DNA from: a virus
UHGV virus genome: UHGV-0120148
Direction: 5' to 3' (one strand)
DNA: 10,879 nt
A model generated the notes under the pieces. The model ran no database searches, was not told the DNA's origin, and saw nothing but the letters and a program-made list of their open reading frames with translations. The translations under genes and the position numbers were made by a program. Positions 2 to 10,879 of the stretch are shown in pieces. The stretch's first letter is position 1. Every line of letters starts with the position of its first letter.

Positions 2-529
2 GCTGATGGCGTGAAAATCGGAGTGAACAAGGTGGTTTCTCAGTGGATTAGCCAGGACAGCTTAACATTAGCTAAAACAGCTAATAAAACATTAGCCAAG
101 TCGGCTAATGGGTATAAGCCAAGTCAGCTAAACACAAAAGACAATATACAAAAGACAATAAATACAAATACCCCCTTACCCCCTAACGGGGGAGGCGATG
201 GGCAGGTTAAACCTGAACGTCGCAAGGCAGAACGCATCGACTACGAATCCTTCCTGAACGCCTACAACACCGAAGTCGGTGACAGACTTCCACACGCTGT
301 TGCGGTCAACGAGAAACGAAAACGCCGCCTGAAGAAAATCATCCCGCAACTGAAAACGCCAAACGTGGACGGTTTCAGAGCGTATGTCAGGGCGTTTGTG
401 CATCAGGCCAAGCCGTTTTACTTCGGAGACAACGACACGGGCTGGACGGCAGATTTTGATTACCTGCTGAGGGAAGATTCGTTAACGGGAGTTCGGGAAG
501 GGAAGTTTGCAGACAGGGGGATTGCATGA
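2..529 (+). CDS. Replication initiator (lambda O / P22 gene 18-like), C-terminal part; 5' end lies upstream of the window
   Basis: Frame is open from the window edge (ORF track starts at GTG 11). Ori-type iterons and an AT-rich tract sit inside the coding sequence, followed by a Pro/Gly/Thr linker and a conserved C-terminal domain. The stop overlaps the helicase start (ATGA at 526-529), as in the P22 gene 18/12 arrangement. Confidence 0.75.
48..175. repeat. Phage origin of replication: four iterons (about 17-18 bp, dyad-symmetric TTAGCC...GCTAA) followed by an AT-rich tract
   Basis: Direct repeats at about 48-65, 68-84, 92-108 and 115-131 (ttagccaggacagcttaa / ttagctaaaacagctaa / ttagccaagtcggctaa / taagccaagtcagctaa), spaced 20-24 bp apart, then an A-rich tract at 132-175. 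Same architecture as ori-lambda inside gene O, but a different iteron sequence. Confidence 0.6.
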
Positions 530-1902
530 AACAGGATATCGAAGCGAGCGTTATCGGTGGCCTGCTGATTGGTGGATTAACACCAATTGCCAGTGACGTT
601 CTGGCAACGCTTGAGCCGGAAGCGTTTTCAATACCGCTCTACCGGAAAGCCTTCGAGGTTATCCGCAAGCAGGCGCGAAACAGAAACCTAATCGACGCGC
701 TGATGGTTGCCGAGGCGTGCGGAGAGGAGCATTTCACGTCAATCCTGATGACCAGCAAAAACTGCCCGAGTTCCGCAAACCTGAAGGGATATGCCGGAAT
801 GGTCGCGGATAACTATCACCGCCGTCTGGTGCTGGAAATCATGGATGAAATGCGTGAACCAATTCAGAGCGGAACCATCGACGCATCGAGTCAGGCGATG
901 GATGAACTTGTAAAGCGTCTTTCAGCCATCAGAAAGCCCCGTGACGAGGTTAAACCTGTACGGTTAGGGGAAATCATAACTGACTACACTGACACGCTTG
1001 ACAGGCGTCTGAGGAACGGAGAAGAGTCCGATACCCTGAAGACCGGAATCGAAGAACTTGACGCTATCACCGGAGGGATGAACGCGGAAGACCTGGTGAT
1101 AATCGCCGCTCGTCCTGGTATGGGGAAAACCGAACTGGCGCTGAAGATTGCCGAAGGCGTTGCAAGCCGCGTTATTCCTGGTTCTGACGTCCGGCGCGGA
1201 GTGTTGATTTTTTCGATGGAAATGAGCGCATTGCAGATTGCAGAGCGGAGCATTGCCAACGCCGGGAGGATGTCGGTTAGCGTGCTGCGAAATCCTGCAT
1301 CGATGGATGACGAAGGCTGGGCGCGTGTTGCTAACGGCATGAGTCAGCTTGCAGATTTGGATGTATGGGTAGTCGATGCCTCGCGGTTATCGGTCGAAGA
1401 AATACGCTCAATCGCAGAACGGCACAAACAGGAAAATCCAAACCTGTCACTCATCATGGCGGATTATCTTGGCCTGATTGAGAAGCCGAAAGCAGACCGT
1501 AACGACCTCGCAATTGCTCACATCTCAGGAAGCCTGAAGGCGATGGCGAAAGACCTGAAAACGCCTGTTATCTCCCTGAGTCAGCTTTCGCGCGATGTTG
1601 AGAAGCGACCAAACAAACGCCCGACAAACGCAGATTTGCGTGATTCAGGAAGCATTGAACAGGACGCAGACTCAATCATCATGCTCTATCGGGAAGCGGT
1701 ATATGACGAGAACAGTAGCGCCGCGCCATTTGCTGAAATCATCGTGACGAAAAACCGTTTTGGCTCGCTTGGTACGGTTTACCAGCGATTCTGCAACGGA
1801 CACTTTGTTGCATGTGACCAAGACGAAGCCAGACAGATTTGCACAGCATCAAATGCACCTGCTGCGCGTGGCAGACGATATGCACAAGGGGCTGACGTAT
1901 GA
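526..1902 (+). CDS. DnaB-family replicative DNA helicase (P22 gene 12-like), 458 aa
   Basis: Walker A motif [14 protein letters not shown] and DnaB-like C-terminal ATPase region; 458 aa; start overlaps the upstream initiator stop; sits in the position of lambda P. Confidence 0.88.
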
Positions 1903-1927
1903 CCATCTACATCACTGAGCTAATAAC

Positions 1928-1959
1928 AGGCCTGCTGGTAATCGCAGGCCTTTTTATTT
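1928..1959 (+). terminator. Rho-independent terminator, tR2-like
   Basis: Perfect 8-bp stem aggcctgc / gcaggcct with loop tggtaatc, followed by tttttattt, between the helicase stop and ninB as in lambda. Confidence 0.75.
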
Positions 1960-1975
1960 GGGGGAGAGGGAAGTC

Positions 1976-2416
1976 ATGAAAAAACTAACCTTTGAAATTC
2001 GATCTCCAGCACATCAGCAAAACGCTATTCACGCAGTACAGCAAATTCTTCCAGACCCAACCAAACCAATCGTAGTAACCATTCAGGAACGCAACCGCAG
2101 CTTAGACCAAAACAGGAAGCTATGGGCCTGCTTAGGTGACGTCTCTCGTCAGGTTGAATGGCATGGTCGCTGGCTGGATGCAGAAAGCTGGAAGTGTGTG
2201 TTTACCGCAGCATTAAAGCAGCAGGATGTTGTTCCTAACCTTGCCGGGAATGGCTTTGTGGTAATAGGCCAGTCAACCAGCAGGATGCGTGTAAGCGAAT
2301 TTGCGGAGCTATTAGAGCTTATACAGGCATTCGGTACAGAGCGTGGCGTTAAGTGGTCGGACGAAGCGCGACTGGCTCTCGAATGGAAAGCGCGATGGGG
2401 AGACAGGGCGGCATGA
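1976..2416 (+). CDS. ninB: NinB recombination protein (146 aa)
   Basis: Protein [28 protein letters not shown]... matches lambda NinB from recall. RBS gggagaggg lies 6 nt upstream of ATG 1976; the ORF-track start at 1958 is a TTG upstream extension. Confidence 0.9.
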
Positions 2417-2589
2417 GACGACAGCGACGAAGTATCACCGACATCATCTGCGAAAACTGCAAATACCTTCCAACGAAACGCTCCAGAAATAAACCCAAGC
2501 CAATCCCAAAAGAATCTGACGTAAAAACCTTCAATTACACGGCTCACCTGTGGGATATCCGGTGGCTAAGACATCGTGCGAGGAAATAA
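2413..2589 (+). CDS. ninE: NinE-family small basic protein (58 aa)
   Basis: [58 protein letters not shown]; resembles nin-region NinE proteins (K-RKP...YTA-L-D--WLR motif, from recall of DLP12 NinE). ATG overlaps the ninB stop (ATGA). Assignment as NinE rather than NinD is from recall and not certain. Confidence 0.6.
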
Positions 2590-2591
2590 CA

Positions 2592-2993
2592 ATGCTTTTA
2601 ATTCAACCTGGATTTGGCCTTAGCATCAAAAAAGGGCACATGTTTGGCGAGAAAGAGTCTCAACGAAAAATGGTGTCGATACAGTTGCCATTTATCAGTA
2701 TTTATTGGCTAAACAGGGAGGCAACAAATTATTGGTATACATGCGCCAGAGCAGCATTTAACGACCCTGACTGGTTTGTGAAAAACCACCACGCAGTTCG
2801 TCAGGCAAAGAGAAAGGCCAATACGACATACATGAAGGCGTATCGAAAAGCATGGAAAGAACACCGCGATCGATACCAACAAGACATGGAAAAGCTTGAA
2901 TCAGAAAACATGGAATTAAGACGAAAGCTTGGTGAAGCAAAACGAGACATTGATGCTTACAAGCGACTTTTTAATGGTGAAAGCCATGCTTAG
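2592..2993 (+). CDS. Hypothetical nin-region protein (133 aa), basic with C-terminal coiled-coil; not part of the lambda nin set
   Basis: ORF in the position P22 occupies with ninX (between ninE and ninF). RBS gagga precedes ATG 2592; the ORF-track start at 2550 lies inside ninE and is rejected. AT-richer 5' half; C-terminus KRKANTTYMKAYRKAWKEHRDRYQQDMEKLESENMELRRKLGEAKRDIDAYKRLF looks like a basic region plus heptad repeat. Start could also be a downstream Met. Confidence 0.5.
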   Translation: MLLIQPGFGLSIKKGHMFGEKESQRKMVSIQLPFISIYWLNREATNYWYTCARAAFNDPDWFVKNHHAVRQAKRKANTTYMKAYRKAWKEHRDRYQQDMEKLESENMELRRKLGEAKRDIDAYKRLFNGESHA

Positions 2994-3162
2994 TCCATCC
3001 CAATCCCTTCAATACCAGAAAGAAAGCGTCGAGCGGGCTTTAACGTGCGCTAACTGCGGTCAGAAGCTGCATGTGCTGGAAGTTCACGTGTGCTCCGATT
3101 GCTGCGCAGAACTGATGAGCGATCCGAATAGCTCAATGTACGAGGAAGAAGACGATGGCTAA
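2986..3162 (+). CDS. ninF: NinF (58 aa, Cys-rich)
   Basis: [58 protein letters not shown] matches lambda NinF from recall; start overlaps the upstream ORF by 8 nt. Confidence 0.85.
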
Positions 3163-3763
3163 ACCAGCGCGAAGACGATGTAAAAACGAAGAATGTCGGG
3201 AATGGTTTCACCCTGCATTCGCCAATCAGTGGTGGTGCTCTCCAGAGTGTGGAACCAAGATAGCACTCGAACGACGAAGCAAAGAACGCGAAAAAGCGGA
3301 AAAGGCAGCAGAGAAGAAACGACGAGAGGAGCAGAAACAGAAAGATAAACTTAAGATTCGAAAACTCGCCTTAAAGCCCCGCAGTTACTGGATTAAACAA
3401 GCCCAACAAGCCGTAAACGCCTTCATCAGAGAAAGAGACCGCGACTTACCATGTATCTCGTGCGGAACGCTCACGTCTGCTCAGTGGGATGCCGGACATT
3501 ACCGGACAACTGCTGCGGCACCTCAACTCCGATTTGATGAACGCAATATTCACAAGCAATGCGTGGTGTGCAACCAGCACAAAAGCGGAAATCTCGTTCC
3601 GTATCGCGTCGAACTGATTAATCGCATCGGGCAGGAAGCAGTAGACGAAATCGAATCAAACCATAACCGCCATCGCTGGACTGTCGAAGAGTGCAGGGCC
3701 ATCAAGGCGGAGTATCAGCAGAAACTCAAAGACCTGCGAAACAGCAGAAGTGAGGCCGCATGA
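3155..3763 (+). CDS. ninG: NinG / Rap recombination-associated protein (202 aa)
   Basis: Near-identical to lambda NinG from recall ([22 protein letters not shown]..., Cys clusters); ATG overlaps the ninF stop. Confidence 0.9.
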
Positions 3764-3966
3764 CGTTCTCAGTAAAAACCATTCCAGACATGCTCGTTGA
3801 AGCATACGGAAACCAGACAGAAGTAGCACGCAGACTGAAATGTAGTCGCGGTACGGTCAGAAAATACGTTGATGATAAAGACGGGAAAATGCACGCCATC
3901 GTCAACGACGTTCTCATGGTTCATCGCGGATGGAGTGAAAGAGATGCGCTATTACGAAAGAATTGA
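3760..3966 (+). CDS. ninH: NinH (68 aa, HTH DNA-binding)
   Basis: [37 protein letters not shown]... matches lambda NinH from recall; ATGA overlap with the ninG stop. Confidence 0.9.
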
Positions 3967-4609
3967 TGGCAGCAAATACCGAAATATTTGGGTAGCTGGC
4001 GATCTGCACGGATGCTACACGAACCTGATGAACAAACTGGATACGATTGGATTCGACAACAAAAAAGACCTGCTTATCTCGGTGGGCGATTTGGTTGATC
4101 GTGGTGCAGAGAACGTTGAATGCCTGGAATTAATCACATTCCCCTGGTTCAGAGCTGTACGTGGAAACCATGAGCAAATGATGATTGATGGCTTATCAGA
4201 GCGTGGAAACGTTAATCACTGGCTGCTTAATGGCGGTGGCTGGTTCTTTAATCTCGATTACGACAAAGAAATTCTGGCTAAAGCTCTTGCCCATAAAGCA
4301 GATGAACTTCCGTTAATCATCGAACTGGTGAGCAAAGATAAAAAATATGTCATCTGCCACGCCGATTATCCTTGTGACGAATACGAGTTTGGAAAGCCAG
4401 TTGATCATCAGCAGGTAATCTGGAACCGCGAACGAATCAGCAACTCACAAAACGGGATCGTGAAAGAAATCAAAGGCGCGGACACGTTCATCTTTGGTCA
4501 TACGCCAGCAGTGAAACCACTCAAGTTTGCCAACCAAATGTATATCGATACCGGCGCAGTGTTCTGCGGAAACCTAACATTGATTCAGGTACAGGGAGAA
4601 GGCGCATGA
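3944..4609 (+). CDS. ninI: NinI Ser/Thr protein phosphatase (221 aa)
   Basis: Metallophosphatase motifs GDLHG, GDLVDRG and GNHE; matches lambda NinI starting at [12 protein letters not shown] 3944 has RBS ggagtgaaagag; the ORF-track start at 3869 is an upstream extension overlapping ninH. Confidence 0.9.
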
Positions 4610-5229
4610 GACTCGAAAGCGTAGCTAAATTTCATTCGCCAAAAAGCCCGATGATGAGCGACTCACCACGGGCCACGGCTTCTGACTCTCTTTCCGGTAC
4701 TGATGTGATGGCTGCTATGGGGATGGCACAATCACAAGCCGGATTCGGGATGGCTGCATTTTGCGGTAAGCACGAACTCAGCCAGAACGACAAACAAAAG
4801 GCTATCAACTATCTGATGCAATTTGCACACAAGGTATCGGGGAAATACCGTGGTGTGGCAAAGCTCGAAGGAAATACTAAGGCAAAGGTACTGCAAGTGC
4901 TCGCAACATTCGCTTATGCGGATTATTGCCGTAGTGCCGCGACGCCGGGCGCAAGATGCAGAGATTGCCACGGTACAGGTCGTGCGGTTGATATAGCAAA
5001 AACAGAGCAGTGGGGGAGAGTTGTCGAGAAAGAGTGCGGAAGATGCAAAGGCGTCGGCTATTCAAGAATGCCAGCAAGCGCTGCATATCGCGCTGTAACG
5101 ATGCTAATCCCAAACCTTACTCAACCCACCTGGTCACGCACTGTTAAGCCGCTGTATGACGCTCTGGTGGTGCAATGCCACAAAGAAGAGTCAATCGCAG
5201 ACAACATTTTGAATGCGGTCACACGTTAG
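4606..5229 (+). CDS. Q: Late-gene antiterminator Q (207 aa)
   Basis: Essentially lambda Q ([31 protein letters not shown]..., zinc-binding CRDCHGTG...CGRCKGVG); ATGA overlap with the ninI stop. Confidence 0.93.
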
Positions 5230-5502: not shown

Positions 5503-5574
5503 GGGTCAGTCGTATAAAGGTCATTACGGAAGGCTGTTAACCTTCTTATCGTGGTTCGAGTCCACGCTGCCCCC
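5503..5574 (+). tRNA. tRNA-like gene, anticodon GTT (Asn) by hand fold; atypical (one acceptor-stem mismatch, no encoded CCA); possibly a pseudo-tRNA
   Basis: Hand fold: acceptor gggtcag/ctgcccc (6 of 7 pairs), D-loop with GG, anticodon stem gaagg/ccttc with loop ctGTTaa, T-stem cgtgg/ccacg with T-loop ttcgagt (TTCRANY consensus). Confidence 0.4.
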
Positions 5575-5583
5575 TCCAAATAT

Positions 5584-5659
5584 GCTGGTTTAGCTCCAAT
5601 GGTAGAGCAGTCGCCTTGTAAGCGAATGGGTAGCGGTTCAAGTCCGTTAACCAGCACCA
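5584..5659 (+). tRNA. tRNA, anticodon TGT (Thr) by hand fold, with encoded CCA
   Basis: Perfect 7-bp acceptor stem gctggtt/aaccagc, D-arm gctc-caatggta-gagc, anticodon loop ctTGTaa, T-stem agcgg/ccgtt with T-loop ttcaagt, discriminator A plus CCA. Confidence 0.6.
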
Positions 5660-6951: not shown

Positions 6952-7088
6952 AATCTTAACTACAATATGATTCATTTTGATGATTGTTTCATAAGGAACA
7001 GTGAAGTAAGATCTAAGAGGAGTTAAATTTTATACAGTATAATCATAATATTGCAGCAAGGTGGTTATAATTGAAAGAATATTTAGAT

Positions 7089-8546
7089 ATGAATACATCT
7101 CATGTAAGAGTTGTTACTCATATGTGTGGGTTCCTGGTTTGGCTCTATAGTCTTTCAATGTTGCCACCAATGGTTGTAGCATTGTTTTATAAAGAAAAAA
7201 GCCTGTTCGTTTTCTTTATAACTTTCGTTATATTTTTTTGCATTGGTGGCGGAGCGTGGTATACAACTAAGAAATCTGGCATTCAATTACGTACCCGTGA
7301 TGGGTTTATTATAATTGTAATGTTTTGGATTTTGTTTTCTGTTATTAGTGCATTCCCTTTATGGATTGACTCAGAACTTAATTTAACGTTCATTGATGCT
7401 CTGTTTGAAGGGGTTTCTGGAATAACAACAACAGGAGCAACTGTAATTGATGATGTTAGTTCATTACCTCGGGCATATTTGTACTATCGGTCACAGTTAA
7501 ATTTTATAGGTGGTTTAGGAGTTATTGTTCTGGCGGTTGCTGTATTGCCATTATTGGGTATTGGTGGTACAAAGCTTTATCAGTCAGAAATGCCGGGGCC
7601 ATTTAAGGATGACAAACTCACTCCCCGCCTGGCCGATACGTCACGGACACTGTGGATAACTTATTCTTTATTAGGTATTGCTTGTATTGTCTGTTATAGA
7701 CTTGCAGGAATGCCTTTGTTTGATGCTATTTGTCACGGGATTTCCACAGTTTCGCTTGGTGGTTTCTCAACTCATAGCGAGAGTATCGGATATTTTAATA
7801 ACTATTTGGTTGAGCTGGTGGCTGGTTCTTTTTCCCTGCTATCGGCTTTCAACTTCACTCTTTGGTATATTGTTATTAGCAGGAAAACGATAAAACCTTT
7901 AATCAGAGATATTGAACTTCGTTTCTTTCTGTTAATAGCCTTAGGGGTGATCATTGTTACCTCTTTCCAGGTCTGGCATATAGGTATGTATGACTTGCAT
8001 GGAAGTTTTATTCATTCGTTTTTTCTTGCCAGCTCCATGCTCACTGATAATGGTTTAGCTACGCAGGATTATGCAAACTGGCCCACGCACACGATAGTGT
8101 TTTTGCTGTCGTCAAGTTTCTTTGGGGGATGTATAGGTTCAACTTGTGGTGGAATTAAGTCACTTCGATTTCTTATACTTTTCAAACAAAGCAAACACGA
8201 GATAAATCAGCTTTCTCATCCCAGAGCGTTGTTGAGTGTAAATGTAGGAGGGAAGATAGTTACAGATCGTGTAATGAGGTCTGTATGGAGTTTCTTTTTT
8301 CTTTATACTCTCTTCACGGTGTTTTTTATACTGGTGTTAAATGGTATGGGATATGATTTTCTTACATCATTTGCAACAGTGGCTGCATGTATTAATAATA
8401 TGGGATTAGGTTTTGGGGCTACTGCATCGTCATTCGGAGTGCTTAATGACATTGCAAAATATTTAATGTGCATAGCTATGATTCTTGGTCGCCTTGAAAT
8501 TTATCCTGTTATTATATTGTTTTCAGGTTTTTTTTGGCGCTCCTAA
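7089..8546 (+). CDS. trkG: TrkG/TrkH-family potassium uptake membrane protein (485 aa); prophage moron
   Basis: Polytopic membrane protein matching E. coli Rac-prophage TrkG from MNTSHVRVVTHMCGFLV... Strongly AT-rich relative to the flanking phage genes. An alternative TTG start at 7071 (6 codons upstream) has a better-placed RBS (aaggtgg). Confidence 0.88.
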   Translation: MNTSHVRVVTHMCGFLVWLYSLSMLPPMVVALFYKEKSLFVFFITFVIFFCIGGGAWYTTKKSGIQLRTRDGFIIIVMFWILFSVISAFPLWIDSELNLTFIDALFEGVSGITTTGATVIDDVSSLPRAYLYYRSQLNFIGGLGVIVLAVAVLPLLGIGGTKLYQSEMPGPFKDDKLTPRLADTSRTLWITYSLLGIACIVCYRLAGMPLFDAICHGISTVSLGGFSTHSESIGYFNNYLVELVAGSFSLLSAFNFTLWYIVISRKTIKPLIRDIELRFFLLIALGVIIVTSFQVWHIGMYDLHGSFIHSFFLASSMLTDNGLATQDYANWPTHTIVFLLSSSFFGGCIGSTCGGIKSLRFLILFKQSKHEINQLSHPRALLSVNVGGKIVTDRVMRSVWSFFFLYTLFTVFFILVLNGMGYDFLTSFATVAACINNMGLGFGATASSFGVLNDIAKYLMCIAMILGRLEIYPVIILFSGFFWRS

Positions 8547-8632
8547 TATATGGCTGATTTATAATTGTGAGTTTAATATTATATTGACTCACTCATTGAT
8601 CCAATACCTAACTTTACCAGCAACACCTCCGC

Positions 8633-8664
8633 CCCCAGTAGCACTGGCTGCTGGGGTGCGTTTT
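8633..8664 (+). terminator. Possible intrinsic terminator downstream of trkG
   Basis: 10-bp stem ccccagtagc / gctgctgggg (one G-U pair) with loop actg, followed by tgcgttttatt; the T-run is offset 4 nt from the stem, so this is weak. Confidence 0.3.
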
Positions 8665-8683
8665 ATTCATAAAGCAAGGCTGT

Positions 8684-9115
8684 ATGAGCGAGAAATTAAA
8701 GATAGTCTATCGCCCATTACAAGAATTGTCACCGTATGCGCACAACGCCAGGACGCACAGTACTGAGCAGGTGGCACAACTGGTAGAAAGTATTAAGCAA
8801 TTCGGCTGGACTAATCCGGTGCTGATTGACGAAAAGGGCGAAATTATTGCGGGTCACGGTCGTGTTATGGCGGCTGAAATGCTCAAAATGGATTCTGTTC
8901 CGGTCATTGTTCTGTCTGGCCTGACGGATGAGCAGAAAAAGGCGTACCGCCTGGCAGATAATCGCCTACCGATGAATGCTGGCTGGGATGAAGATCTGTT
9001 GCGGATGGAGCTGTCGGACCTAATCAATGCTGATTTTGATGTCTCCCTGACAGGCTTCGGCCCGACAGAAATTGATGAACTGTTGACGGATGTTTTGCCC
9101 GGTATCGGGCCTTAA
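8684..9115 (+). CDS. ParB-like nuclease domain protein (143 aa), probably a truncated N-terminal part of a larger protein
   Basis: ParB/Srx-like N-terminal domain features (IIAGHGRVMAA, RLADN) and the ...SLTGFGPTEIDELL linker that in phage ParB-methyltransferase fusions precedes a methylase domain; here the ORF stops about 15 codons later, 3 nt from the convergent tfa stop. Confidence 0.65.
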   Translation: MSEKLKIVYRPLQELSPYAHNARTHSTEQVAQLVESIKQFGWTNPVLIDEKGEIIAGHGRVMAAEMLKMDSVPVIVLSGLTDEQKKAYRLADNRLPMNAGWDEDLLRMELSDLINADFDVSLTGFGPTEIDELLTDVLPGIGP

Positions 9116-9118
9116 TTT

Positions 9119-9646
9119 TTACTCTGGTTTTTGTGGCCATTCAGGATTTGCCGTATCCACACGGCTGACCAGAACACTGTAGCGTTCCCATGCTTCCAGT
9201 CGTGTGCGTTCCTCGTCTGTTGCCATATTCAGCCTGACAGCGCGCTCCAGCGGCAAAATTACGGATTCAGCTTCGGAAAGCAAAGCTGCCTTCTGTAATT
9301 CCGCCTGTTGTTGCTGTTCATCTGCCGTATAAATCCGTTTAACCACAGCTCCGTCCCTAAACATCCACTTACTGGAATCATCAGCGCAGCGGTTGGCTGT
9401 AATATCTGGAACCTCAACGACGCTATAACCTTCAGGGTTAAGCGTGGAGGCATCTTTGGTGATGGCGACAATAATATTATTTGCATCGTAAACAATCTTT
9501 ATTGTGTCTGGCTGAAAGTTTTTCACTTCCTCATACCAGTTTTTTCCGTCTTCGGACCATAACCAGATAACATCAAAATTCTTTGTTAGCTGATATTGTT
9601 CTTTTGTTTTTGGATTTCCAGACTTAATATTTTTTAAATGCTGCAT
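9119..9646 (-). CDS. tfa: Tail fibre assembly protein (Tfa / Mu U' type, 175 aa)
   Basis: C-terminal conserved Tfa motif ...[25 protein letters not shown]...; located immediately downstream of the tail-fibre variable segment on the same strand. Confidence 0.8.
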
Positions 9647-9649
9647 AAA

Positions 9650-10654
9650 TTACACCTGTACGACGTTATACCATGTGCCATTGATGTATTTTTGTATTGG
9701 TCTGAATACTGCCGGATCATCGCCATCAACTGCACCGATAATGCCAAGCCCCGTAATTGCATGACCTGATTTCTCATACATCACGCCTTTTTGCATAGTC
9801 TGAACAACACGTGTACCAAGTCGGACATCTCTCACATAACGTGAGTCAAAATTACCATAATTGCCGGGAATAACTTGCGCACCGCAAAGCCAGTTGCCAT
9901 TGTTGTCCATGTACGCCTGACCATCGGTGCCATTGGCTGTCCTTGAGTTATTAATCATGTAGATGCCAAATTGCTTATTCCCCAGTCCACCAATCATAAA
10001 TTTGCGATCAGCGTGGTCCTGACGAAGTAATGCCTGCGCACCATCGGTGGATACCGCATTGCGTCCCAAAATAACATTCTGGTCACGCATATGAATCCAC
10101 ATGCCGGTACTACTGTTAATTGCAAAACGGTTTGCAAATATATCCCCTGTAACATCAAGACCATGCCCCATGCTTATCCGACCAGTTCTGAGATTAAGCG
10201 TAAAGGGGCGTAGTGGCCCTATATCACCATTTTCTCCCTCATTCTCTCGTGTAGGGATGATATGCAGGCATTCTTCAGAACGACGAAAAATAGCACCAAA
10301 AGATGAATTAAATATCCTCAGTGCATTGACTGTCGATATTTTTACTTCACTGCTGAAAAGGGCTTTAACAAGGACAGACAAAGCATCCCATTTAAGAGTC
10401 ATCAGGTCTTTTGTTGTGGTGCTCTGGCGGCTTCTCCATTTGAAATATTCATTGCCGTTGTCGCCTGTTTCAAACCACATGTATGAATCAGTGTCGCTGT
10501 CGGCATTATTTTTAAAACCAATCTTTGCCCAGTCAGTATTTCTAATCCAGGCAAGGATTGAGTCGTTTTCAAAAGTAAGCCCACCGGACAAGGTATCGCC
10601 ATTCTTTTGCACGGCGTTCCTGGCCCTGTTTACCGTTTCCTGTAAACCGAGGTT
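9650..10654 (-). CDS. Tail fibre protein, variable C-terminal segment (Sv'-type) lacking the constant N-terminal part; silent cassette
   Basis: Open frame on the minus strand runs from inside the gix-like site (encoding NLGLQETVNRARNA, as in Mu/P1/e14 tail-fibre junctions) to the stop at 9650. No start codon or N-terminal constant domain is present; the ORF-track start at 10612 is an internal GTG. Gly/Asn-rich, fibre-like composition. Confidence 0.7.
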   Translation of the reverse strand, partial: NLGLQETVNRARNAVQKNGDTLSGGLTFENDSILAWIRNTDWAKIGFKNNADSDTDSYMWFETGDNGNEYFKWRSRQSTTTKDLMTLKWDALSVLVKALFSSEVKISTVNALRIFNSSFGAIFRRSEECLHIIPTRENEGENGDIGPLRPFTLNLRTGRISMGHGLDVTGDIFANRFAINSSTGMWIHMRDQNVILGRNAVSTDGAQALLRQDHADRKFMIGGLGNKQFGIYMINNSRTANGTDGQAYMDNNGNWLCGAQVIPGNYGNFDSRYVRDVRLGTRVVQTMQKGVMYEKSGHAITGLGIIGAVDGDDPAVFRPIQKYINGTWYNVVQV

Positions 10655-10662
10655 TTAGATAA
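10637..10662. other. Site-specific inversion crossover site (gix/pix-like, 26 bp) for a Gin/Pin-family invertase
   Basis: ttcctgtaaaccgaggttttagataa differs at one position from the Mu gix site as I recall it (TTCCTGTAAACCGAGGTTTTGGATAA); positioned between the 5' end of the silent tail-fibre segment and the invertase gene. Confidence 0.7.
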
Positions 10663-10716
10663 TGGCGGTTTCTGGCCTGCATGGCATGATTTGTGCTTTT
10701 GGACGGGAGATTCAGC

Positions 10717-10842
10717 GTGCTGATTGGCTATGTAAGGGTATCAACAAATGACCAGAATACAGACCTGCAACGAAACGCTCTTGTTTGTGCAGGATGTGAA
10801 CAAATATTTGAAGATAAATTAAGCGGGCACTGTTGCAAATAG
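10717..10842 (+). pseudogene. pin: Pin/Gin-family DNA invertase, N-terminal fragment (about 37 native codons) interrupted by IS26
   Basis: Translation [37 protein letters not shown] matches the serine-recombinase N-terminus of Pin/Gin (catalytic Ser in YVRVSTNDQ); the frame then reads into the IS26 inverted repeat and stops (HCCK*). Start appears to be GTG. Confidence 0.8.
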
Positions 10843-10879
10843 TCGGTGGTGATAAACTTATCATCCCCTTTTGCTGATG
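10826..10879 (+). mobile_element. IS26 (IS6 family), left terminal inverted repeat and first about 54 bp; continues beyond the window
   Basis: ggcactgttgcaaatagtcggtggtgataaacttatcatccccttttgctgatg matches the IS26 left end from recall, beginning with the 14-bp IR GGCACTGTTGCAAA; tnpA itself lies beyond the window. Confidence 0.85.

Follow-up and report, generated by a model that had tools for sequence, protein, structure and literature searches.

The nin region in the stretch of DNA analyzed here (10,879 nucleotides of the virus genome UHGV-0120148, hereafter the window) raises a simple question: what is the open reading frame of 133 codons that separates ninE from ninF, and what might its product do? 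The initial annotation had described this region as departing from lambda by the lack of ninC and ninD and by an extra frame ahead of ninF. Both observations hold, as ninB (1976-2416) ends in the ATGA with which ninE starts at 2413, leaving no ninC or ninD between them, and the additional frame (2592-2993) is present between ninE and ninF (Table 1). The NinE-family frame that had also been reported is there as well, scoring 148.6 bits for PF05322 against a cutoff of 25. Upstream, the window carries no ren and has a P22-type helicase and a P22-type ninA, whose two ends overlap the stop of the helicase gene and the start of ninB.

Table 1. Positions of the features discussed, numbered from the first letter of the window.
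Feature	Position	Strand	Basis
ninA, 26-aa P22-type peptide	1899-1979	+	24 of 26 residues as in P22 NinA
tR2-like intrinsic terminator hairpin, then T-run	1928-1951	+	inside ninA
ninB (Orf recombination mediator)	1976-2416	+	PF05772, E 1e-54; 99.3% identity to lambda NinB
ninE	2413-2589	+	PF05322, E 4e-44; 90% identity to lambda NinE
GAGGA Shine-Dalgarno sequence	2580-2584	+	within the conserved ninE 3' end, 7 nt upstream of ATG 2592
133-aa ORF (PHROG 1511 family, function unknown)	2592-2993	+	phrog_1511 match, 97-99% homologs, purifying selection
N-terminal domain, codons 1-65 (predicted)	2592-2786	+	AlphaFold models, family conservation
Cassette-specific DNA	2595-2985	+	three-way DNA alignment (window, lambda, P22)
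Basic start of long helix, codons 66-94 (predicted)	2787-2873	+	family alignment
Heptad (leucine-zipper-type) coiled coil, codons 95-127 (predicted)	2874-2972	+	family-wide a/d periodicity
ninF	2986-3162	+	PF05810, E 8e-14; 78% identity to lambda NinF

A gene-sized cassette between ninE and ninF

In a three-way DNA alignment of the window, lambda and P22, the 3' end of ninE is identical in all three up to about 2586. Identity with lambda stops there and restarts at about 3013; identity with P22 stops at the ATG (2592-2594) and restarts at ATGCTTAG (2986), where the ATG of ninF overlaps the last 8 nt of the 133-codon frame. The intervening DNA is absent from lambda and unrelated to the ninX sequence of the same slot in P22. 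The slot holds nothing in lambda, NinX in P22 and the 133-codon gene in the window, and the GAGGA at 2580-2584 serves any occupant, be it the 133-codon frame, P22 ninX or lambda ninF. The 133-codon frame is a mosaic cassette the size of one gene, placed in the ninE-ninF slot of a lambdoid prophage. A relationship of its product to P22 NinX, which the initial annotation had proposed to check, was rejected: BLASTP gave no alignment at E≤100, and NinX maps to phrog_444, not 1511.

Within positions 1850-3250, the hairpin inside ninA is the sole terminator-like site, and no promoter-like sites were found. At the equivalent place in its own ninA, P22 has a terminator that is annotated as "L2; similar to phage lambda". 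Because this tR2-like terminator lies upstream, everything downstream of it, including the 133-codon frame, would need antiterminated pR transcription. The gene would accordingly be expressed only in lytic growth, as part of the delayed-early pR transcript formed under antitermination. It is packed stop-to-start with ninE and ninF, and is probably translationally coupled to these neighbors. A moron, with its own promoter and terminator, was also considered and rejected, as neither element flanks the gene in 1850-3250 and the gene overlaps or abuts its neighbors.

The 133-codon frame is a conserved protein-coding gene

The frame runs from the ATG at 2592 to a TAG stop at 2991-2993 and encodes a protein of 16 kDa with a pI of 9.8. 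Mapping of the start by its ribosome-binding site, as had been proposed, settles on this ATG, with GAGGA 7 nt upstream. A start at GTG 2550, giving a 147-aa version, was discarded: it lies inside ninE, has no ribosome-binding site, and all homologs begin at the M1 position. The AT-richer 5' half that had been described is barely one (41.0% GC, vs 42.6% in the 3' half); rather, it is the frame as a whole that is AT-rich, with 41.8% GC as compared with about 50% in ninB, ninF and ninG.

Homologs in 36 clusters keep the full length, at identities down to about 25%. Compared with homologs of 54-70% identity, the frame shows a pS of 0.82-0.91 and a pN of 0.19-0.34, and dN/dS against close homologs is 0.11-0.24. 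Since length is kept down to this level of identity, and since synonymous sites are saturated while amino-acid change is low, the frame is coding; it is a genuine, conserved protein-coding gene. That the frame is open by chance, or is a functionless remnant in decay, could be imagined from the lack of a known function, from a GC content below that of the flanking genes and from the truncated or frameshifted copies found in databases. The strong purifying selection and full-length conservation argue against it, as do the conserved start and ribosome-binding site and a confident structure prediction, and we give it next to no probability; on the homolog comparisons (conservation, pS/pN and dN/dS), this reading is already refuted. 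The two outcomes that the initial annotation had named as fatal to its proposal, a non-coding region and a nin protein of known function, thus do not apply: the frame is under purifying selection and is not a characterized nin protein.

An unnamed protein family found in lambda-like phages

The protein matches phrog_1511 end to end (residues 1-133 against profile positions 1-133 of 133, E 4e-86). The gene is not new: many lambda-like phages have it on record, though without a name. It is carried by 58 phage records, every one annotated as hypothetical (NinE is found in 425), and in 35 phage records the protein is 97-99% identical to that of the window; its equivalents include HK630 gp55, VT1-Sakai H0039 and, in CP-933V of EDL933, WP_000924601.1. 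Among complete E. coli genomes, 392 of 5,426 (about 7%) contain it. With the gene at the same place in these phage records and E. coli genomes, and with an identical order in HK630 (ninB-ninE-ORF-ninF-ninG-ninH-ninI-Q), the arrangement can no longer be called an unusual departure from lambda. It is ordinary mosaicism, and does not add an element of a new kind.

Placement between ninB/ninE and ninG extends over Enterobacteriaceae, Pluralibacter, Biostraticola and a contig labelled Martelella alba. For the more distant homologs, the setting is always a phage early region with tightly packed genes and with none of NinB, NinE and NinG; across the six distant loci, no neighbor common to all was found that could be a conserved partner gene. 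Neither domain fusions nor named relatives turned up among 1.8 billion representatives or in a profile search of 5.8 billion proteins, where matches named "CII" or "NinB" proved to be chimeric or partial ORFs. Pfam and NCBIfam gave no match above threshold, and the sub-threshold matches in these and in PADLOC (CagS, CENP-F, GerR, the VPA1267 family, LmuB) were set aside as coiled-coil noise. An Rfam scan gave no RNA families within the locus, and literature searches by accession, guessed locus tag, peptide string and topic found no study of the protein.

Predicted structure

AlphaFold models of the protein have a pLDDT of 87 over the full length and 82 for residues 1-80. The predicted N-terminal domain consists of beta strands (2-6, 11-16, 26-31 and 35-40) and two helices (42-56 and 59-65), with D58-P59-x-W61 and N65 as its conserved residues. 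No match to its fold was found in the PDB (best E 0.63); Roadblock/longin and the OGG1 N-domain were rejected as candidates (E>0.6, TM<0.4). When the full model was compared with the PDB and BFVD, and residues 1-80 with the PDB, the only significant match was the family's own member.

The domain is followed in the model by a single continuous 65-residue helix (67-131, pLDDT 92-98), whose first turns bear a basic patch that is the best conserved of the family, V69-R70-x-A72-K73-R74-K75-A76. Basic residues occur at R70 and K73 in 91% of the family, at R74 in 80% and at K75 in 77%. The highly basic stretch noted earlier is borne out: residues 66-94 carry a net charge of +8, and this charge is positive in 34 of the 35 aligned members. 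In the 18 most distant aligned homologs, codons 79-85 are missing as one block, an exact 7-residue indel in the helix. The heptad-repeat C-terminus that had been described, which takes up about the last 35 residues of the helix, is likewise a property of the family, with hydrophobic occupancies of 0.53 at "a" and 0.70 at "d" and of ≤0.17 elsewhere. In the window protein, the "d" residues are Y95, L102, L109, A116 and Y123, and the "a" residues M99, N106, L113, I120 and F127; 97% of members have D/E at g-position 119, and 77% have K/R at e-position 124. A polar Asn at "a" and opposite charges at g/e' are hallmarks of parallel two-stranded coiled coils. The product is probably a coiled-coil protein that is positively charged and forms pairs.

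Resemblance to eukaryotic bZIP proteins

Some UniProt and NCBI entries of the same cluster are automatically named bZIP protein. PDB searches by single sequence and by family profile returned nothing below E 0.01; the profile search gave only bZIP and coiled-coil chains (E 0.01-0.3). An hhalign comparison of the family with nine bZIPs gives 87% probability (pairwise E 3.9e-6) and sets N65 and K73 on the bZIP Asn and Arg; A68, V69 and A72 fall on the Ala-Ala-Ser/Cys positions of the motif N-x2-A-A-x2-[SC]-R (family conservation: N65 94%, A68 51%, V/I69 100%, A72 80%, K/R73 91%). N77 and R85 were discarded as the bZIP Asn and Arg, as their columns are not conserved and hhalign aligns N65 and K73 instead.

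These alignments, the seven-residue interval between N65 and K/R73, and the database names would fit the reading that the protein truly belongs to the bZIP transcription-factor superfamily, was acquired horizontally and holds a palindromic DNA site in the classical scissors grip. Several results speak against it. The zipper contributes 27.9 of the hhalign score of 34.9, and profile-profile scores are inflated by coiled coils; the basic part alone scores 12.0 (E 0.012), which 4 of 300 shuffles of the columns also attain. Pfam bZIP_2 (PF07716) gives 10.1 bits (E 0.89, below the cutoff of 22.3), bZIP_1 (PF00170) is unreported in the Pfam scan, and neither is among the 25 families, of 63, that are matched by the largest numbers of the 35 members. 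The invariant spacing from Arg to the first zipper Leu (R-x9-L) is broken, as hhalign needs a 4-residue gap for the short forms plus a 7-residue insert for the long forms, including the window protein. Finally, N65 borders directly on a globular domain, and in the model the helix is interrupted at residue 66. We consider true membership quite improbable. Scarcely more probable is a phage basic-region/zipper DNA-binder, convergent with or distantly related to bZIPs, that would have a novel N-terminal ancillary domain and, by binding specific sites in lytic growth, would regulate genes of the phage or the host. The resemblance to eukaryotic bZIP proteins appears real but weak, and the protein lacks the spacing that defines them.

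Possible functions

The proposal that the product is a small DNA-binding or regulatory protein stands insofar as this is a genuine gene in a variable accessory slot and has a build that suits such a role, with a heptad zipper after a basic segment; the function itself is what we infer. The most likely function would be that of a dimeric accessory factor of the delayed-early phase, binding either nucleic acid or a host protein. Our tentative preference, held at somewhat less than even confidence, is for a mosaic cassette in the ninE-ninF slot with a delayed-early, homodimeric basic-zipper product that most likely binds nucleic acid. In this model, the protein would act as a homodimer, with its two N-terminal domains and basic patches displayed at one end of the zipper; the dimer would most likely bind nucleic acid broadly as basic-region/zipper proteins do, and would thereby influence some step in lytic development that is not essential. 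The nin region of lambda is dispensable, and ninB, ninC, ninF, ninG and ninI are non-essential by CRISPRi (PMC10695390).

Several points count against the nucleic-acid reading, among them the origin of the bZIP-like signal mostly in the zipper and the sub-threshold Pfam score given above. N65 lies at a helix junction in the model and may just cap the long helix; the basic patch and the zipper are set apart by distances that vary by 7 residues from one subfamily to another and exceed those of bZIPs by 4 or 11; and an acidic host protein or RNA would be an equally plausible partner for a basic coiled-coil protein.

It is possible, if less probable, that the dimeric coiled-coil protein binds and inhibits a host protein, either of a defense system or a housekeeping factor, with the N-terminal domain and basic patch as its protein-binding surface. 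Such an anti-defense or host-takeover factor would suit a variable, non-essential slot in the early region, a presumed expression confined to lytic growth, the absence of a partner gene, and a patchy, horizontally mobile distribution over temperate and virulent-type phage contigs. Depending on the phage, Lar restriction-alleviation proteins and orphan Dam/N6 methyltransferases are found among the neighbors, but methylase neighbors are typical of nin regions generally and unspecific to this gene. The sequence also gives no pointer to a target, and we found nothing that points to toxicity or to the anti-defense role suggested earlier: no known defense or anti-defense family was matched above threshold in PADLOC, Pfam or NCBIfam, and the literature searches gave no support either. 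The only PADLOC-DB match was to the coiled-coil region of LmuB (13.5 bits, not significant), and the protein sequence is absent from the 16 text-form supplementary files of one accessory-gene screen (PMC12373910).

An auxiliary factor of nin recombination, acting with NinB/Orf and NinG/Rap, for example by non-specific binding of branched or single-stranded DNA, was weighed as well. The protein is basic, and the position of its gene between ninB/ninE and ninG recurs in the groups listed above. Against this, the more distant homologs occur without NinB, NinE or NinG, lambda and P22 have NinB and NinG without the protein, and the gene is far rarer in phage records than NinE (58 vs 425). We regard this role as very improbable.

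Significance and comparison with known systems

Overall, the finding is of modest interest. It shows lambdoid mosaicism cleanly, at the level of a single gene: across phages, unrelated genes take up one fixed slot, which has a ribosome-binding site in common at one border and a start/stop overlap in common at the other. The gene is found in Stx1 prophages of E. coli O157:H7, in addition to the E. coli genomes counted above, yet is unstudied. If its basic zipper does bind DNA, it would represent a new type of regulator for a very well-studied phage group, and might affect the development of Shiga-toxin prophages; a phage basic-region/zipper DNA-binder would belong to a DNA-binding class so far uncharacterized in bacteriophages.

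The nin region of lambda has the order ninB-ninC-ninD-ninE-ninF-ninG-ninH-ninI-Q. The initial annotation had called the nin genes and Q of the window essentially those of lambda. This is accurate for NinB, NinG, NinH, NinI and Q (97-100% identical) and for the overlapping stop-start packing, which is the same; it is not for NinF, which is just 78% identical and has a P22/ST104-type 5' end followed by a lambda-like remainder in the alignment. NinE, which had been listed as a departure, is present in lambda too (90% identical). The window differs from lambda in missing ninC, ninD and ren, in the P22-type ninA and helicase upstream, in the cassette between ninE and ninF, and in the P22-type N-terminus of NinF.

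P22 NinX (PHROG 444) occupies the same slot behind the same ribosome-binding site and at its end likewise overlaps ninF by ATGCTTAG; it has 112 aa, vs 133 aa for the window protein, and its function is also unknown. The closest relatives are "hypothetical proteins" of HK629, HK630, mEpX2, VT1-Sakai and the Stx1 prophage of O157:H7 EDL933, 97-99% identical over all 133 residues and placed after ninE and before ninF, as in the window. HK630 and the window share the complete nin gene order up to Q. The differences are not substantial and concern the upstream content: in the Stx1 prophages, a Dam-type methyltransferase separates ninB from ninE, which directly follow each other in the window.

With the eukaryotic and viral bZIP transcription factors (GCN4, C/EBP, Fos/Jun, HY5), the predicted protein shares a basic segment that passes into a heptad zipper as one continuous helix, an Asn at an "a" position, g/e' charge pairs, and an apparent N-x7-[KR] motif with small residues that aligns to the DNA-contact residues. 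It differs from them in the folded 65-residue domain that directly precedes this motif, and in a spacing from basic motif to zipper that is 4 or 11 residues longer and not fixed within the PHROG 1511 family.

Gene content of the window

The window is a piece of a lambdoid prophage, whose features are collected in the table below. Given a helicase close to P22 gp12 and a P22-type ninA, the left part of the region is P22-type and its right part lambda-type, and since the replication module is P22-type, ren is absent. At 26 codons, ninA lies below the 40-aa cutoff and is missed in ORF lists that use it. Lambda's ninC and ninD are also absent, because the ninB stop and the ninE start overlap in ATGA; this, and the extra 133-codon ORF (ORF133) between ninE and ninF, bears out the initial annotation's description of the nin region. 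Two of its details need correction: NinF, taken there as essentially lambda, is only 77.6% identical to lambda NinF, and ninE is not a departure from lambda. In a comparison across E. coli genomes, the ninB-ninE junction (2413-2416) is a second variable slot, empty in the window and occupied in E. coli prophages by a PAPS-reductase-like ninC, a Dam-type N6-adenine methyltransferase, an MT-A70 methyltransferase or an HNH endonuclease.

Features of the window, with amino-acid identity of the products to their lambda counterparts
Feature	Position	Identity to lambda	Remarks
Replication-initiator-like ORF, C-terminal part	11-529
DnaB-type helicase	526-1902		90% identity to P22 gp12
ninA, P22-type	1899-1979		24/26 residues as in P22 NinA
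tR2-like intrinsic terminator hairpin and T-run	1928-1951		within ninA
ninB	1976-2416	99.3%
ninE	2413-2589	90%
ORF133	2592-2993
ninF	2986-3162	77.6%
ninG	3155-3763	96.6%
ninH	3760-3966	100%
ninI	ends 4609	98.6%
Q	4606-5229	99.5%
tRNA-Asn (GTT)	5503-5574		between Q and P21-type holin
tRNA-Thr (TGT)	5584-5659		between Q and P21-type holin
TrkH-family potassium transporter gene	7071-8546		directly after Rz/Rz1
ParB_N-domain gene	8684-9115		after TrkH-family gene
Tail-fibre assembly gene, then tail-fibre gene C-terminal part			minus strand, after ParB_N-domain gene

Beyond the tail-fibre gene, the translation suggests the beginning of a putative invertase-type (Pin-like) gene. In this part of the window (7071-10879), no head or tail genes intervene between Rz/Rz1 and the tail-fibre genes, and the layout is therefore that of a Rac-like defective prophage, which we take to resemble Rac of K-12. 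Among complete E. coli genomes, none contains the entire window collinearly, and the best covers 61%.

ORF133 is a real gene of the early operon

Four lines of support establish ORF133 as a real gene. Its start, which the initial annotation had left to be mapped, is the ATG at 2592, with GAGGA 7 nt upstream; a GTG at 2550 was rejected, lying inside ninE and having no ribosome-binding site. The same aligned Met begins all homologues, and their length stays at about 125-138 residues, both down to 25% identity. Comparative data, which might have marked the region as non-coding, display a purifying pattern: against homologues that share 54-70% of their amino acids with it, from Pluralibacter, Biostraticola and a contig that bears the label 'Martelella alba', pS is 0.82-0.91, with synonymous sites saturated, and pN is 0.19-0.34, while dN/dS is 0.24 against the HK630 copy and 0.11 against the EDL933 copy. 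Finally, the AlphaFold2 model of the protein, built on a 35-sequence alignment, is confident (mean pLDDT 87).

As a cassette, ORF133 is coding, conserved and confined to a defined slot, where it leaves a gap of only 2 nt to ninE and overlaps ninF by 8 nt. Within 1850-3250, no promoter-like or terminator-like site was found besides the upstream tR2-like hairpin. Because it has no such sites of its own and is so tightly packed, ORF133 is not a moron, i.e., a self-contained gene unit transcribed from a promoter of its own. Its expression would depend on the antiterminated pR transcript alone and fall in the delayed-early phase. Its part in lytic development is probably non-essential; lambda plaque formation survives deletion of the entire nin region, and ninB, ninC, ninF, ninG and ninI were non-essential when tested by CRISPRi with Q supplied in trans (PMC10695390).

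Predicted architecture and possible function

The protein (16 kDa, pI 9.8) is predicted from its sequence and the models to have a two-part fold with a basic patch and a zipper. The model has strands at residues 2-6, 11-16, 26-31 and 35-40 and helices at 42-56 and 59-65, followed by a single helix at 67-131; when residues 1-80 were modelled separately, the same N-terminal elements were obtained (pLDDT 82). Foldseek returned no significant PDB match for either model (best E 0.63), and its sole significant match in BFVD was a member of the same family. Conservation is highest at G19, D58, P59, W61, N65, V/I69, R70, A72, K73, R74, K75 and A76, with the basic patch (R70, K73, R74 and K75) among them. 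The heptad-repeat C-terminus noticed at first reading is family-wide: over residues ~85-127, the hydrophobic fraction is 0.53 at 'a' and 0.70 at 'd', and at most 0.17 at other positions. The 18 most distant aligned homologues lack exactly seven residues (79-85), a deletion that keeps the heptad phase. An Asn at 'a', together with g-e' salt bridges, as in GCN4 with its N16, is an established mark of parallel dimeric zippers. The family has such an Asn at position 106 in close relatives and at 120 in ten distant ones, and carries D/E at position 119 (g) in 97% of members and K/R at position 124 (e) in 77%, which argues for a zipper of this kind. The protein would thus homodimerise in parallel.

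In layout, the ORF133 protein resembles a basic-region/zipper protein. Some members of its 90% identity cluster carry automatic names, 'BZIP domain-containing protein' in UniProt and 'bZIP transcription factor' in an NCBI submission; in RefSeq, and wherever phage records annotate it, it is a "hypothetical protein". For Pfam bZIP_2 the score is 10 bits, below the threshold of 22, and a PDB profile search reaches HY5, GCN4 and C/EBP chains at E 0.01-0.3 only. Aligned by hhalign with nine bZIP domain sequences, the family gives a probability of 87% (pairwise E 3.9e-6), and N65 is paired with the invariant Asn of bZIPs, K73 with their invariant Arg. The zipper alone contributes 27.9 of the score of 34.9. 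With only the basic part, the score is 12.0 (E 0.012), and 4 of 300 column shuffles score as high. Moreover, the alignment needs extra residues between basic motif and zipper (4 in short forms, 11 in long forms), violating the fixed spacing that defines bZIPs, and N65, which the model places at a helix junction adjoining the folded domain, may do no more than cap the helix. We therefore find no support for placing the protein in the bZIP family, and give true bZIP ancestry a smaller weight.

Our tentative reading, possible rather than probable, is a dimeric nucleic-acid-binding protein, in which the end formed by the N-terminal domain and the basic patch would contact nucleic acid. That end may instead bind an acidic host protein; an inhibitor of a host protein, serving anti-defence or takeover, seems to us somewhat less likely than the nucleic-acid-binding reading.

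Distribution and distant relatives

ORF133 is not new: the gene is in the catalogues, though uncharacterised, and its arrangement is ordinary mosaicism. A match to PHROG 1511 ("unknown function") spans the entire protein (E 4e-86), and by tblastn it is present in 58 phage records: 35 with an identity of at least 95%, among them HK629, HK630, mEpX2, ECP1, VT1-Sakai and many Stx1/Stx2 phages, and 18 at 80-90%, with Salmonella phages listed at 86.5%. As NinE occurs in 425 phage records, about one in seven NinE-bearing phages has ORF133. The O157:H7 copies are H0039 in VT1-Sakai and WP_000924601.1 in the EDL933 Stx1 prophage, and 392 of 5,426 complete E. coli genomes carry the gene. The family is small, with only 36 clusters (50% identity level) at E<=0.001 among 1.8 billion representatives, and a literature search by accessions and peptide sequence found no mention of the protein. 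In some phages, e.g., KU977419.1 / NC_049920.1 (Stx1 phage AU5Stx1), ORF133 is split in two, apparently by frameshift, at the junction of N-terminal domain and long helix; PHROGs 28676 and 18832 are separate families for its N-terminal 66 and C-terminal 55 residues. One record, MW057783.1 ('Campylobacter phage CJLB-4'), encodes at 42016-42183 a NinE 96% identical to that of the window, beside a NinF; despite the Campylobacter name of the record, that region resembles the sequence of a lambda-like coliphage.

Homologues at 54-56% identity (Biostraticola and the contig labelled Martelella alba) still lie between ninE and ninG. On that contig (NZ_SZPQ01000041.1, 2858-5510), NinB, a winged-helix protein, NinE, the homologue, NinG and Q form an enterobacterial-style block in a genome labelled as an alphaproteobacterium; this may reflect contamination, misbinning or a mislabelled organism. 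The examined homologues at 25-31%, and one at 48%, sit in other dense phage early operons, near RdgC, Rv2179c-like exonuclease, Lar, Dam, N6/N4 methyltransferases, DinI and HicAB; one contig has dNMP kinase and dCMP deaminase as neighbours, which is typical of virulent phages. A recombination-accessory role carries a smaller weight in our assessment. No conserved partner was found at the examined distant loci and no domain fusion in large protein searches, so that, with such varied early contexts, ORF133 behaves like an early accessory gene that is mobile and stands alone.

The ninE-ninF slot in lambda, P22 and HK630

When the window, lambda and P22 are aligned at the DNA level, the slot boundaries come out sharp. 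The 3' end of ninE, Shine-Dalgarno included, is near-identical in all three up to ...CGTGCGAGGAAA (window ~2586). Window and P22 are identical through the following ATG (2592-2594), unrelated across the insert (391 nt in the window, ninX in P22), and identical once more from ATGCTTAG (2986), the ninF start, where the overlap gives whichever gene fills the slot its last Ala codon and TAG stop. P22 NinX, proposed for comparison in the initial annotation, gives no BLASTP alignment with the ORF133 protein and forms a separate PHROG (444); it was rejected as a relative. The GC content of the cassette (41.8%, against ~50% in the flanks) fits a different origin; its 5' half, described earlier as AT-richer, is so in direction but hardly in size (41.0 versus 42.6% GC). 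In lambda, the slot is almost empty, and the sequence rejoins at ~3013, whereas HK630 has the order of the window, NinB-NinE-hypothetical-NinF-NinG-NinH-phosphatase-Q. Sharp shared flanks around unrelated inserts thus constitute classic lambdoid gene-cassette mosaicism, in a region whose genes are packed exceptionally tightly (PMC8022706) and which, in such phages, has been called "typically mosaic" (PMC2629481).
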